This document shows positions 37,101 through 46,100 of a DNA stretch of 64,000 bases, piece after piece. Every line of letters begins with the position of its first letter. Within the stretch, counting starts at the first letter, position 1. The position numbers are program-made. This DNA comes from a plasmid. The stretch is taken from NCBI RefSeq assembly GCF_058153355.1, contig NZ_JBLWLY010000002.1; one strand, given 5' to 3'.

Positions 37101-40100
37101 AGCGACTCCCGGGCAAAATACGCTGTTGCTTTTTTTAATATATCTCGCTCAAGTCGTGCTTCATTTAAAGCCTTACGCAGTTGCATAACTTCCAGCCACT
37201 GTGCGGGAGCCAGGTGTATTGAGCCCTTTTCTTGCGGCGGTAACCCATTGTCCTAAAGTGCCTTCAGGAACAGATAATCGGGAAGCGCCTTCACTGAGCG
37301 AAAGCTGATTTTCAGGAACCGTTTTGACGGCTTCGGCTTTAAACTCCGTAGAGTAACGTTGGGTTTTTCTGCTCATTATTGGCTCCTTCTGATGCCATTC
37401 TATTTCAGGAAGGAGTGTCCGTTAAACTCAGGCTACCTCACGCTTCAGGCGGGCATTTTCAGCGGCCAGTTCACTTTCACGCTCAGACGAGGTCATCTGT
37501 TGCTGCAGTTTGCTGCGCCACGCATAGAGCTGAGATTCATACAGGCTGAGTTCACGGGCTGCGGCAGCAACACCGATGCGTTCAGCAAGCTTCAGGGCTT
37601 CACTGCGAAATTCAGGCGAATGCTGTTTACGTGTTTTTTTGCTGGTTGATACTGTTTTTGTCATGTGAGTCACCTCTGACTGAGAATTTACTCACTTAGC
37701 CGCGTGTCCACTATTGCTGGGTAAGATCAATTTGCTCACTGGTATTTACTACGTGCATCGAATGAGTGATCAAGAGCCGTATGACGCGAGAGTGTCACGT
37801 ACGGTTCCGTGAGCAGCCGGAGAGTGAAACTCTCTCCGGCTGACTCGACTCGCAGGTTCCGACAGCGGTGATGAACATGCAGCGGTGTTGTTCTCGCTGA
37901 TCGGCACATGCCGTCTGAACAATGTGGAGCCAGAAAAATGGCTGCGTTACGTTATTGAATATATCCAGGACTGACCGGCAAACCGGGTACGCGATCTGTT
38001 GCCCTGGAAAGTTGATCTGACTTCTCAGTAAATATCAATATGATTCTGACGAGCCGCTTACCTTTGAACAGAGAAAGGGGAGAGGGATCCCACATCCATG
38101 AGCTAGGAAAATACAAAAACTGGCTATACAACAATTCAATATATTAGGACTTACTTGCGAGGAGAAATATAGCACCGCTCAGGCAATTCTTGGGTATTTA
38201 CTTTTCTTAGTTTCTTTACTCGGGATGTTCTGTCATCAGAAAGGCGATTCTAAATTTGTAATATAGTCACTCATATTCCCACGTAATTTCTTTAGATCAA
38301 TATATTGCACATTTTTCTCAAAAAACTGATCGGAAATAAGATTTGCAACATTGCTTGTTGTATCATTTTTAACGCTTCTATTCATCCCTTCACAAAGTTC
38401 GTCCATTTTCTTTTTGAAATAACTGCTTCCTGATACAAGATGATTTATGGAACTTTGTGCAGCATTGATGTCTAGAGAAATGCGATAATCTTTCTCAACC
38501 TGTTTAAATATCTGTTTACGGAGGTTATCGCCGATTTCTCGGCTGTGTTCTGCACAAAACTTATCAATACATTGGTTTACCACCCGGGATACGTAGACTT
38601 TTTTTTCATCATTTTTCCAATCTGTAATATTTTCACCGATTTGTTCTGAAACAGAGCTCAAAATACTAGTATTTATTTTGGTTGATGATATTTTTACTAT
38701 CCTTTTCCCCATTGTACAGCGGATAATCTCATCCACCTTTCCTGAAAAATATCTTTTGTGAGATAAACTGATTCCAAAATTATTAAAAGATGTTCCAAGC
38801 ATTATAATCACTTTGTCATGTAAAATAGTAACATTGTCATTATTTTAGCTGATTCAAACAATTCTGTAAATGCTTTGAGTTCTTTACTCCCTTGGCTCAA
38901 TGATGGACCGTCTGGAATCCCAGAGACTAAACTCTCTGAGAAAGAGAGTATGAAAAAACTTGGGGCAGTCCCTAAATGAAGGGACCAACAGCGGTAAAAT
39001 AACCGGCATCATTCATAATGATGCCCTGTTAGTTGTAGTTATGAAGATTTACGTCATTAAAATTGCTGTTCGTAGTGTCAGTCCTATGGTCTGGCATCAG
39101 CTGAGGATCGTAGCCGATACATCACTGGCTTCACGACATTCGTGTTGAGGCTATTCATGAAAACTCCACGCAGAAAACGCCGTTTTGTATAAACGGTCAC
39201 GGTATGCCCGGAGCCACTGTTGCTGATGAATTCGATAAAACCTTGGCGTTTCTTGAAGCTATCGTTAATGCGGATAATGAAACAACGATAGGTGAGATTC
39301 GCTCTTTTGCCGACGCCCTGGACGCTGTCCGGTTCAATCGCAACAAAATCAACCGGCAGCTGAGCAAACCCAACCTTGCCTCTCTGGCGCTGGAGCATGA
39401 AGTGATTTGGCTGGGACGTAGCCGCTGACAGCTTCTATAAAAGTATGATCCTACCCACGTAATATGAACACAGGCTTAAGCGAGGTTCTGGTTTTCAAAT
39501 TGTTCAGGACTGAGACCTCCACACCAACTGTGCCGTCGTCAGCGATTGTAATCGCACTTGATATAATTAAACACTGTGTATTTCATTTGTGGAGTCTCCA
39601 GTCTGAGGGGGCTTTATGCATTCCGTATTGGGCACTATGATGCCAGAAATCTGCGAGGCTCCACACCTTCCTGTATTTCCCTTCCTCTATCACAGTGCAC
39701 TTTACTTAATAGGGTGGGATGTGTTCATTACATTTATTGTGTTTTTTATGATTGTTTTTGCGTCCAGTGTCGTTCGTCATGGGAAACTGGTTCTATGGGT
39801 AGTATCGCTCAGTCTAGTTAACTGTTTGTTTCTTTTTAGAAATTAAGCAGATCACACAATTCGGGGAGAGATCCTTCTAAGTGCAATTCTTTGCAGCTAT
39901 TTAGCACACTTAAAACAACTCTTGTATTTTGTCAGAAATAATATTAAACGTGTCTTGTTCATTATTGTTAAGTCTGTCTGCTATTTCTGTAAGTTTTATC
40001 CCACTATGATGGCATATATTTATATATGCCATCATAGCCTCGATATTCCCTTTCCCTGCGGCCAGAAATAATCCTGGTAAACCCTCATTATCTCTTACAT

Positions 40101-43100: not shown

Positions 43101-46100
43101 GCCGGAATGAAACAGACAGAATTTGCTGAAGTGGTGGGGGCTAGCGTTGACCTCGTGCGCAGCTGGGAACAACAACGGCGTATTCCCTCTGGTATTGCGT
43201 TGAAAATGTAATGAACGCATCCCACACAATTAAACACGGAGCAGTATGATGGTTAAAAGGGGGAAATTGGCAGGTGTGGAGCCTCGCAGATTTCCGGCAT
43301 CATAGTGCCCAATACGGGATGCATAAGCTCCCTCAGACTGGAAACTCCACGAATGAAATATACACCGGTTGGCGTTGATATCGCAAAGCATCTGATTCAG
43401 GTTCACTTCATCAATGAGCACACAGGTGAAGTGGTGGATAAGCGACTACGTAGCAGAGATTTTCTGACGTTCTTTACCGCGAACCCTGCCTGATTGGTAT
43501 GGAGGCTTGTGGAGGCTTGCAGCACTGGGCGCTGACAGCGCGTGAGCTGAAAAAACAGGGTCATAAAGTCCGGTTGTTGCAGGCCCGCTTTGTTAAGGCA
43601 TTCGTCATGGGCAATAAGAATGATGTGATGGATGCCCGGGCTATCTGGATGGCGGGTCAGCAGCCTGGTAAAGAAATTGCCGTAAAAACAGAAGAACAGC
43701 AGTCGGTACTGGTTCTGCACCGTTCCCGCATGCAACTGGTGAAGTTCCGGACCGCACAATTAATGCCCTGCACGGGACGTTACTGGAGTTTGGTGAAACC
43801 ATCCACAAAGGCCGGGCAGCGATGGTTCGGGAGTTCCCTGAAGCACTGGAGCGGATGAAAGAGAGACTGCCACCGCATCTCATCACAGTACTGGAAAACC
43901 AGTACAACAGTTTGAGTAAGCTGGATTCACTGATAGAGTGATATCGAAAAACAGCTTACCAGCTGTGGCGAAACAGAATGAAACCTGTAAGCGGTTGCTG
44001 GATATTCCCGGCGTTGCGCCACTTATTGCGACGACAGCGGTGGCCACCATGGGGGAAGCATCAGCGTTTAAATCAGGGCGAGAGTTTGCCGCATATGTCG
44101 GTCTGGTTCCAAAACAAACCGGCTCCGGAGGTAAAGTTCGCCTGCTGGGGATAAGCAAACGTGGTGACACTTATCTCAGGACATTATTTATCCACGGAGC
44201 AAGAGCGGTGGCATTAGTAGCTAAAGAGCTTGGCCCGTGGATAACCGAACTGAAAAAACGTCGTCCGGCCAGTGTGACAATCGTCGCCATGGCAAACAAG
44301 CTGGCACGAACAGTATGGGCGATAACCGCCCATAGCCGTAAGTATGACAGGAACCATGGTAAGCGGCTCGCCAGAACCGTATTGATATTTACTGAGAGCT
44401 CAGATCAACTTTCCAGGGCAACAGATCGCGTACCCGGTTTGCCGGCCAGTCCTGGATATGCTCAATGACGTAACGCAGCCATTTTTCTGGCCCCACATTG
44501 TTCAGACGGCATGTGCCGATCAGCGAGTACAACACCGCCGCATGTTCGCCACCGCTGTCGGAACCTGCGAGTCGAGTCAGCCGGAGAGAATTTCACTCCC
44601 CGGCTGCTCACGGAACCGTACGTGACACTCTCGCGTCATACGGCTCTTGATCACTCATTTGATGCACGTAGTAAATACCAGTGAACAAATAGCTTCGGAT
44701 ACTCCTTCCTTACCAGCGTCAGCTTTCGCTGAGCCTTCCGGTTCGAAAGTCTGTATTTAGACTGCATCCACTTGAGCAGACGTGACTGCATTGCACTCCA
44801 CAGTCGATAGTTGAAATTTCTGGACCAGAACTTTCCGTAGTACTCGATCCAGCCTCTCACTATCGCATTGTAGCGCCTCGCAAAATCCAGCAAACTCTCA
44901 GCTGTTGAGCGATGTATACGCCACTTCTTGATTGTTTCTGTTATTTTGCGCATTGCTGCATTTGACGCACCCGGCATGCATTTTCGGTACAGTTCGCCTT
45001 TGAAATTCTTCAGCGTACGCACTTTGAAGTCATATCCGAGAAAGGTGAAACTCGTTGCGACGTTTCTCCTTTTAAACGTGTCAATGTAGGCGATATTCGT
45101 TTTCCCTGCATTCAGGACCAGCCCGACTTCCGAGAAGCGCTCCGATAACCTGTTCTTCAGCCTTGTTGCATCACTCATTCGTGAACAATGTACTACAATA
45201 TCGTCAGCGTACCTCTCAAACGGTACCCCCCGATATTCTCTTTCCATCCACAAATCAAATGCATAGTGAAGGAACAAGTTAGCAAGTAGTGGACTAATGA
45301 CCCCGCCCTGCGGAGTGCCTCGTGTTCGGGTTATTAATTCTCCATTTTCACAACTCTGCATTGGCGCTTCCATCCAGCGTCGACAGTACAGGATGACCCA
45401 TTTAGGCATCCCGTGGTGTTCCAGAGCTTTGAGCACCAGATCATGTCTCACATGGTCGAAAAACGCACTGATGTCCACTTCCAGTATCCAGCTATAACGC
45501 CAGCACCGGATGGCACATTGTTTCAGAGCGTCATGAGCTGATTTGCCTGGTCGGTAACCATATGAATCAGCATGGAAAATCGGGTCAAGCTTTTCTTCCA
45601 TGAAAAGTTTTATCGCTCCCTGAGCAATTCGATCGGATACTGTTGGGATCCCCAGAATGCGTTCCTTGCCATTCGACTTCGGGATCCGTTTTTCCAGCAC
45701 TGGTGGCGGAAACCATGTTCCCGAACATAGCCGGTTCCAGATCTTGTATAGATTGCCATCACGTTGCTGGTCGAACATTTTCAAAGTCTGCCCGTCGCAT
45801 CCGGGGGCTCCCTTGTTGCGACGCACATCCAGATATGATGCCCAGACCAGTGCTTTTGGTATTTCAAATGATTTTCGTTGCATCAGTTACGTCATCCCCT
45901 TTTGGGTTGTGTCTTCTGCAATGAATGTGATCCCCATCCCTTCGCTCCAGACCCATTACAGATCTTTCATCACTACTACGAATGGGTCCGCCCCTGTTTC
46001 CCGATACGTGCCGGAAACAGGTTCTCACGTTCCCTGAGATGGTCTGGCCCGGGATCCTGCTGCCTTCACACCGGATGCCGCGCAGTCAGTAAGCAGGTGT

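Follow-up and report, generated by a model that had tools for sequence, protein, structure and literature searches.

The window analysed here, 64,000 nucleotides of a plasmid contig (NZ_JBLWLY010000002.1 of NCBI RefSeq assembly GCF_058153355.1), carries the T3SS effector/anti-activator gene ospD1 on the minus strand at 39910-40587, as annotated in the matching pINV records. IS256-family transposase fragments lie on the same strand at 40959-41500, where the ORF 41175-41381 matches NCBIfam transpos_IS256 (E = 1.3e-06) and where pSS_046 is annotated simply as "transposase". They are followed by an IS3-like right end with orfB fragments at 42026-42689 (minus strand; 91% to L002 3970-4183), the second such end at the locus, where Pfam rve_2 matches the ORF 41954-42166. 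On the plus strand, 42690-43208 is occupied by a relE/nadS toxin-antitoxin remnant that is 87.4% identical to relE-nadS of K. variicola pKP91 (L005 286-806). The relE gene lacks its 5' end; nadS, with its ATG at 42966 and a score of 68.1 bits against the NCBIfam NadS cutoff of 60, is cut by an ISEc11-like element (element B) that supplies the stop codon of the truncated gene at 43209-43211. The inverted repeats that bracket this segment do enclose ospD1, IS fragments and the toxin-antitoxin remnant, as the first-pass annotation had stated.

The inverted repeat is formed by 39575-39735 on the minus strand (arm A) and 43204-43364 on the plus strand (arm B), and measures ~161 bp. Comparison of 39500-39800 with the whole window by BLAST aligns 39575-39735 with 43364-43204 at 82.9% over 164 columns (E = 3.6e-42), all unrelated matches in the same search having E >= 0.05. 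A gapped alignment of the arms yields 137/166 identical positions (82.5%) with longest perfect runs of 23 and 22 bp, and a repeat search resolves them into three contiguous gapless blocks of 90%, 89% and 79%. By region, the identity is 19/20 in the tip and subterminal repeat, 28/48 in the variable part, 76/82 in the leader core and 11/12 in the first four tnp codons. A repeat of ~78 bp and ~90% had originally been reported at 39590..39667 and 43268..43345; the repeat is real, but its length is ~161 bp, and the ~78-bp block is its best-conserved sub-region, the family-conserved 5' leader just upstream of tnp. The two ranges as written lie ~5 bp out of register and match at 15/78 positions, and when the register is corrected 69/74 overlapping columns are identical (~93%). 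Alignment to IS110/IS1111 ends, which had been proposed as a check, identifies both arms as left ends (bp 1-162) of IS1111-group elements of the IS110 superfamily. The right arm does adjoin the start of an IS110-family transposase, as first observed; it runs up to and into tnp, the ATG of which is at 43354.

BLAST, identity to ISEc66 and diagnostic sites assign arm A to an ISEc66-like element of the IS1111 group, of which it is a solitary left-end stub (IS bp 1-162). What it retains is the 7-bp tip (AAATGTA), then the subterminal repeat ATGAACACATCCC and the 5' leader, and finally codons 1-4 of tnp. Its closest likeness among the two references is to ISEc66 ("IS110-like element ISEc66 family", annotated in E. 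coli pRM14721), with 94.4% identity to bp 1-161 and the same subterminal repeat, as compared to 85.2% for ISEc11 bp 1-162 (BLAST, E = 1.9e-47; 85.3% in a separate comparison). Its place in the IS1111 group follows from homology that starts at IS bp 1 and includes the tip and left subterminal repeat. Unlike ISEc66 itself, however, only 162 bp survive: four tnp codons remain, and the transposase, seekRNA region and right end were not found in the window. The left flank ACACAAT is also unlike the ACAGG at the single intact ISEc66 copy examined, and the right flank, the other half of any target site, has been lost.

Arm A touches a 132-bp IS3-like (IS3H-type) right-end remnant at 39446-39577 on the minus strand, which confirms the initial report that the first repeat copy abuts an IS3-family terminus fragment. 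In an annotated IS3H copy, the orfB-distal end (L002 3970-4101) is 93% identical to the remnant, which is also a direct repeat (91%) of 42026-42157. This contact, together with the habit of ISEc11 of targeting a site that is itself inside another IS, the IS66-family tnpB gene, could be taken to mean that a single IS110-type element inserted into an IS3-family end as its preferred target and that the repeat marks that event. The orientation of the parts argues otherwise. The IS3-like tip at 39446 points away from arm A, to which the broken interior edge of the remnant is fused, and arm A has its own tip, IS bp 1, at 39735, directed towards unique pINV sequence on the ospD1 side, downstream of that gene. 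At 39575-39577 the two sequences overlap by 3 bp (TGT), the bp that is 132 from the IS3 end meeting IS1111 bp 162; since this joint links two element interiors, it is a deletion joint. Moreover the target of arm B is nadS and not an IS, and neither the canonical ISEc11 target nor, at <=3 mismatches, its IS66-tnpB context occurs in the window. The earlier proposal of an insertion into an IS end is thus not supported, and such an origin for the repeat is exceedingly unlikely.

Arm B is the first 161 bp (43204-43364) of element B, which extends over 43204-44356 on the plus strand and corresponds to bp 1-1148 of the 1443 bp of ISEc11 (92.5-92.6% identity; 86.4% to ISEc66), its tnp being a pseudogene. 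ISEc11 is a 1443-bp element with the target GTGAAAATACTG, a 7-bp left extension and subterminal repeats, and an essential seekRNA at ~bp 1127-1397 (Siddiquee et al. 2024, PMC11187229). At 92.6% identity over bp 1-1148, element B shares with it the 7-bp tip, the beginning of tnp, the leader and the left subterminal repeat ATGAACGCATCCC. It differs in that eight indels break the tnp reading frame and in that ISEc11 homology ends at bp 1148: tnp is short of its last 22 bp, and both the right end and the entire seekRNA non-coding region are missing. ORF fragments of the pseudogene nonetheless show both domains of the group's transposases: the DEDD (RuvC-like) N-terminal domain PF01548 (DEDD_Tnp_IS110; E = 1.3e-4, on a fragment and below the gathering score) and the C-terminal domain PF02371 (Transposase_20; IS116/IS110/IS902; E = 5.6e-22). 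The seekRNA region finds no match anywhere in the window, and the right subterminal repeat GGGATGCGTTCAT and right end are absent from the whole window, leaving one of the two ends. Element B is a member of the IS1111 group by descent only. The window holds just two ISEc11-related segments, bp 1-1148 at 43204-44356 and bp 1-162 at 39735-39575. Element B has no match of >=95% in PLSDB or the complete E. coli genomes, and part of its divergence from ISEc11 may be due to decay.

The left junction of element B reads TTGA/AAATGTAATG (slash, junction), and the uninterrupted nadS homologue reads GCGCTGA/AAATGCTCTG. The intact homologue site, CTGA/AAATGCTC, matches the published ISEc11 target, GTGA/AAATACTG, at 9/12 positions, and element B sits exactly at the predicted ISEc11 cut point in nadS. 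Site-specific insertion is thus seen at the left junction, the right junction having been lost and the target having been reconstructed from an 87%-identical Klebsiella homologue. Element B is truncated by an IS66-family right end on the minus strand at 44358-44570, with its tip GTAAGCGG at 44358, which is 96.7% identical to an intact IS66 copy at 11115-11326; Pfam DDE_Tnp_IS66_C matches this end, and the alignment shows the repeat ending ...GCTTACC. A group II intron of 1824 bp lies within the tnpC gene of the IS66-family element (44571-46394, minus strand; Rfam Intron_gpII and group-II-D1D4-2, Pfam RVT_1 and GIIM), its RT/maturase ORF at 44651-45883 and its boundaries set by comparison with the intronless IS66 copy. 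An "IS110 family transposase" beside the same IS66 end in EIEC pCFSAN029787_01 was set aside as a candidate, having no DNA homology to ISEc11.

The ISEc11 and ISEc66 references are 88.4% alike, and at 20 diagnostic positions arm A is ISEc66-type at 17/20 and arm B ISEc11-type at 19/20, with no mosaic or exchange of diagnostic sites between the arms seen at these 20 positions. The arms therefore derive from two independent insertions and not from a duplication. The favoured reading, held with a probability of about 90%, is that the arms are the homologous left ends of two different but related IS1111-group elements that entered a pINV-type plasmid independently, in opposite orientations, and that both decayed. 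By the first-pass annotation's own account, its reading would be refuted if the repeats proved to be parts of two unrelated IS types; this is half the case, the two IS species being distinct but related. That one element's left end was instead copied and inverted in a segmental rearrangement might be suspected from the fact that both arms begin at IS bp 1 and have 161 bp in common. However, the arms bear the signatures of two IS species, their outside flanks are unrelated, and arm A is present in 133 plasmids without B; such an inverted duplication almost certainly did not take place.

For the independent entry of two elements, the following order of events appears probable. An ISEc66-like element would have landed ~174 bp downstream of ospD1, and a deletion beyond the fourth tnp codon of arm A would have fused it to the IS3-like interior, before the divergence of the known pINV lineages. 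The ISEc11-like element B would have inserted site-specifically into the 3' end of nadS, at a sequence close to the cognate ISEc11 target, subsequently gaining frameshifts and losing its last ~295 bp where it now meets the IS66::group II intron element. Judging from the ISEc11 experiments, entry was presumably guided by seekRNA. Arm A and element B are both incapable of transposition and do not together form a functional unit.

The bracketed segment had also been suggested to be inversion-prone. RecA-dependent recombination between the arms, which are inverted homologous sequences 3.5 kb apart, would flip the ospD1-nadS segment and give structural isomers, and IS-mediated rearrangement is a known trait of pINV plasmids (PMC5723341). 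Several observations weigh against this. The window and two independent draft assemblies with both arms (L015 and L016) are collinear and show one orientation only, the contigs of both drafts reading through both arms unbroken; to either side of the arms the window is also collinear with pSS_046 and an S. boydii pINV, and the context of arm A is fixed in 133 pINV records. The arms are only 82.5% identical in the gapped alignment and their diagnostic sites show no exchange. At 23 bp, the longest perfect run does not exceed the RecA minimal efficient processing segment, and mismatch repair strongly penalises recombination at this divergence. Only one recombinase gene lies at the arms, and it is a pseudogene; neither a dedicated recombinase nor adequate repeats were found there. 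A far better substrate would be provided by an outer inverted repeat, 37730-38062 versus 44358-44690, of 333 nt with 315/333 positions identical (95%) and a longest perfect run of 60 bp; its left arm, on the plus strand, was identified by repeat alignment and Rfam and consists of an intron 3' stub at 37730-37849 (Rfam Intron_gpII matching 37772-37849) and an IS66-family right end at 37850-38062. Short junction patterns cannot tell inversion isomers apart because recombination within the arms leaves both tip-flank junctions unchanged. The suggestion of an inversion-prone segment is not borne out: inversion between arms A and B is unlikely, and the RecA-dependent flipping of the segment very much so.

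Across 12 relatives, which represent four genera, the leader core hardly varies, and the leaders of intact ISEc11 and ISEc66 have a common predicted fold that covers the Shine-Dalgarno sequence. The ~95-nt leader might accordingly be viewed as a structured regulatory RNA occluding the transposase ribosome-binding site, the orphan copy of which was co-opted into the ospD1 3' UTR in all pINV plasmids, a possibility that is highly improbable. Single-sequence fold z-scores of the leader are weak (-2.07 to -0.41), and RNAalifold applied to the 12 relatives gives 25 mostly invariant pairs with an unfavourable covariation term of +0.92, i.e. covariation support is absent; by these two measures the leader as a validated RNA structure is unproven. 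No RNA family was detected at either arm when 34-50 kb and the entire window were scanned with Rfam at gathering thresholds. These scans did find a group II intron, FinP/traJ, sok and AS-pc02 in the window.

A retained function might take either of two forms: the arm A leader could be kept as part of the ospD1 3' UTR, or transposase and seekRNA supplied in trans by intact ISEc11 copies could act on the orphan left ends. In addition to the common predicted fold, arm A lies on the same strand as ospD1 with its tip 174 bp downstream, and a scan of this neighbourhood for promoters and terminators turned up neither a promoter nor a terminator-like site in the stretch from the stop codon of ospD1 to arm A; also, ISEc11 functions can be supplied in trans (PMC11187229). 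However, the formation of ISEc11 circles requires intact target-derived flanks on both sides as well as the right end (PMC11187229), which neither arm has. Furthermore, although 133 pINV records, spanning four Shigella species and EIEC, keep arm A and its flanks at 97.5-99.6%, arm A is no better conserved than the neutral flanks, and the weak z-scores and absent covariation noted above also count against function. Retention in either form is, like the regulatory RNA, hardly to be expected.

The two remnants have counterparts among known systems. The Shigella pINV carries only defective ISEc11 copies (review, PMC5723341), which are like those described here in plasmid family, IS lineage and non-functional state. 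Inverted-IS-bracketed segments, such as arise from IS-mediated inversions or are composite-transposon-like, similarly have inverted homologous IS sequence flanking a gene-bearing segment. Prosseda et al. in 2006 is reportedly the source from which the review drew the defective copies. The present pair differs from the inverted-IS-bracketed segments in that two left ends of different IS species are involved, with 161 bp at 82.5% identity, in that the arms hold no transposase, right end or guide RNA, and in that no isomers are seen in three assemblies.

Only two other public assemblies proved to carry the nadS::B junction. Within PLSDB and the complete E. coli genomes, the junction and a 4.3-kb block had nothing at >=95% and no record covering >=80%. 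In the plasmid lineage of the window this block holds the relE/nadS remnant, the ISEc11-like pseudogene and the IS66::group II intron; the comparison shows that it was lost from the common pINV lineages through one shared deletion, and it could serve as a lineage marker.

The inverted repeat is therefore a feature of an already-known kind, ordinary plasmid debris on a Shigella-type virulence plasmid and not an ospD1 switch, and the arm A/B repeat is no ground for regarding the ospD1 segment as invertible. The result matters little but tidies the annotation near ospD1: a previously unannotated stretch beside this gene, in essentially all sequenced pINV plasmids, is now accounted for as an ISEc66-like left-end stub.

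The window that holds the inverted repeat around ospD1 comes from a virulence plasmid of the Shigella/EIEC pINV type. Positions 38500-42223 are 97-99.5% identical to pINV records of S. sonnei, S. boydii and EIEC, and annotation in the matching records places ipgB2 at 38236-38811 and ospD1 at 39910-40587, both on the minus strand. Rfam matches to the sok antitoxin RNA, the traJ 5' UTR with FinP, and AS-pc02 (19396-19565, 23568-23677 and 57610-57797) mark remnants of F-type maintenance and transfer functions, in keeping with a pINV backbone.

The repeat is real: comparison of the left region with the whole window pairs 39575-39735 (arm A, minus) with 43204-43364 (arm B, plus) at BLAST E = 3.6e-42, while unrelated matches of that region within the window all have E >= 0.05. 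A repeat search returned three gapless contiguous blocks jointly spanning the same intervals, and gapped alignment of the arms gives 137 identical columns of 166 (82.5%). The ranges paired in the first-pass annotation were ~5 bp out of register, agreeing at 15/78 positions as written and at 69/74 once registered; the ~90% block is present, but its ~78-bp extent is only the best-conserved part. Identity between the arms is 19/20 in the tip and subterminal repeat, 28/48 in a variable stretch, 76/82 in the leader core and 11/12 in tnp codons 1-4, and the "78-bp" repeat is the leader core that is conserved across the IS family. When the left ends of 12 relatives are aligned (E. coli, Shigella, Klebsiella, Pantoea and Serratia), ~95 nt directly upstream of the tnp ATG are nearly invariant and bp ~20-65 vary freely; the window's leader copies are at 43270-43353 and 39586-39668. 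For the intact ISEc11 and ISEc66 leaders, folding predicts a shared long-range stem that covers the Shine-Dalgarno sequence, with weak z-scores and without covariation support. The Serratia copy has a possible compensatory change in this predicted stem (GUGGAUCC/GGAUCCAC).

Both arms are ends of IS1111-group elements, and the IS110 family assignment originally made for them was right. ISEc11 is a 1443-bp IS1111-family element with target GTGAAAATACTG, a 7-bp left extension ahead of the subterminal inverted repeat, a 339-aa DEDD transposase, and a required seekRNA encoded in the 3' non-coding region at ~bp 1127-1397 (PMC11187229, Siddiquee et al. 2024). Positions 43201-44356 match annotated ISEc11 copies by megablast at 92.7%. 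With an intact copy as reference (L001 1504-2946, sitting in an IS66-family tnpB), the whole window holds only two ISEc11-related segments, bp 1-1148 at 43204-44356 (element B) and bp 1-162 at 39735-39575. Both arms start exactly at IS bp 1 (AAATGTA, then ATGAAC[G/A]CATCCC) and span the 150-bp leader and first four tnp codons. In a distant search the best match of arm A outside pINV is an annotated ISEc66 copy. Arm A is 94.4% identical to ISEc66 vs 85.3% to ISEc11, whereas element B is 92.6% identical to ISEc11 vs 86.4% to ISEc66, the two references being 88.4% alike over their full length. At the 20 sites in bp 1-162 where the references differ, arm A is ISEc66-type at 17/20 and arm B ISEc11-type at 19/20; the arms derive from two different IS species. 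No mosaic of these 20 sites was found between the arms, so nothing points to one having been duplicated from the other, or to gene conversion or crossover.

Element B inserted in nadS and appears to have decayed afterwards. Its left junction reads GCGTTGA/AAATGTAATGAAC, and nadS now ends at an IS-supplied TAA (43209-43211). NadS, which scores 68.1 bits with NCBIfam (cutoff 60), has lost 19 C-terminal residues. The stretch 42690-43208 is 87% identical to the intact relE-nadS pair of K. variicola plasmid pKP91, which at the junction point reads GCGCTGA/AAATGCTCTG and agrees with the ISEc11 target at 9/12 positions; judged against this homologue, nadS is broken exactly at the published ISEc11 cut position. 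No canonical ISEc11 target occurs in the window. Element B differs from ISEc11 by eight indels, its ORF fragments still match PF01548 and PF02371, and it stops at bp 1148 against an IS66-family tip (GTAAGCGG, 44358); the seekRNA region and right end of ISEc11 have no remaining match in the whole window. Annotated ISEc11 copies elsewhere insert within another IS, in IS66 tnpB; this partly bears out the intuition of one IS entering another as far as the family goes, but does not hold for these two copies.

Arm A is an old, fixed remnant; together with both flanks it recurs, at 97.5-99.6% conservation, in 133 pINV records of S. sonnei, S. boydii, S. dysenteriae, S. flexneri and EIEC, where it is unannotated. 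It lies on the ospD1 strand, and its tip (39735), 174 bp downstream of that gene, faces unique sequence. No terminator-like site was found between the ospD1 stop codon and arm A (39736-39909, minus strand), so ospD1 transcripts may run on into the IS stub. The interior of arm A ends at 39575, where it shares 3 bp (TGT) with the inner edge of an IS3H-like right-end remnant (132 bp), whose tip at 39446 points away from arm A. Two element interiors therefore meet at this joint, which marks a deletion and not, as had been proposed, the entry of one IS into the end of another. IS3-like right ends at 39446-39577 and 42026-42157 form 132-bp direct repeats (91%) that flank arm A, ospD1 and IS256-family fragments, and in principle are a deletion substrate for ospD1.

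The suggestion that the segment is inversion-prone fares no better. The longest perfect runs shared by the arms are 23 and 22 bp; such short runs and divergence make a very poor substrate for RecA-dependent recombination. The diagnostic sites form no mosaic, and the assembled sequences carrying both arms show one orientation in 3/3. A much better substrate for homologous recombination is the outer inverted repeat, 37730-38062 vs 44358-44690 (333 bp, 315/333 identical, 60-bp perfect run), which is built from the 3' end of a group II intron and the right end of an IS66-family element; ipgB2, ospD1 and both arms lie between its two copies. The IS66-family element abutting element B has its tnpC interrupted by this 1824-bp intron (44571-46394, minus), which encodes a 410-aa RT/maturase (RVT_1 and GIIM). 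A second intron copy comprises the last 120 bp only (37730-37849), cut by an IS3-type element, and IS66 copies at ~11115-13400 and 29170-31700 lack the intron. In the pINV plasmids of EIEC and S. boydii, this IS66 end with its intron abuts a different IS110-family transposase fragment beside parA/parB (pCFSAN029787_01, L003 3519-4004; also L014 1-117); the pCFSAN029787_01 fragment is not homologous to ISEc11 at the DNA level.

The arms have the known IS1111-group architecture, as two non-functional remnants, and of the earlier interpretation the family assignment stands without the insertion or the inversion. ISEc11 is functional in EIEC pINV, with only defective copies in Shigella pINV (review PMC5723341), and the two arms of the repeat are ordinary IS remnants, a kind of feature that is already known. 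The nadS::IS junction has no match at 95% or above in PLSDB plasmids or complete E. coli genomes. An exact-match search with the truncated NadS made by the insertion found two other public NCBI draft assemblies only (GCA_043012465.1, GCA_015332025.1), whose contigs are 99.97-100% identical to and collinear with 37466-44357, continuous through both arms and broken only at the borders of IS3 and IS66, which are multi-copy. The window is collinear, on the same strand, with S. sonnei pSS_046 and S. boydii CIP 56-18 pINV over 37441/37712-42223 and from 46554 onward; both lack 42224-46553 (4.33 kb: IS3-like orfB remainder, relE/nadS remnant, ISEc11-like pseudogene, IS66 end and group II intron) and have an identical joint, 42223/46554. 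The lineage of the window seems to keep the ancestral state of this block.
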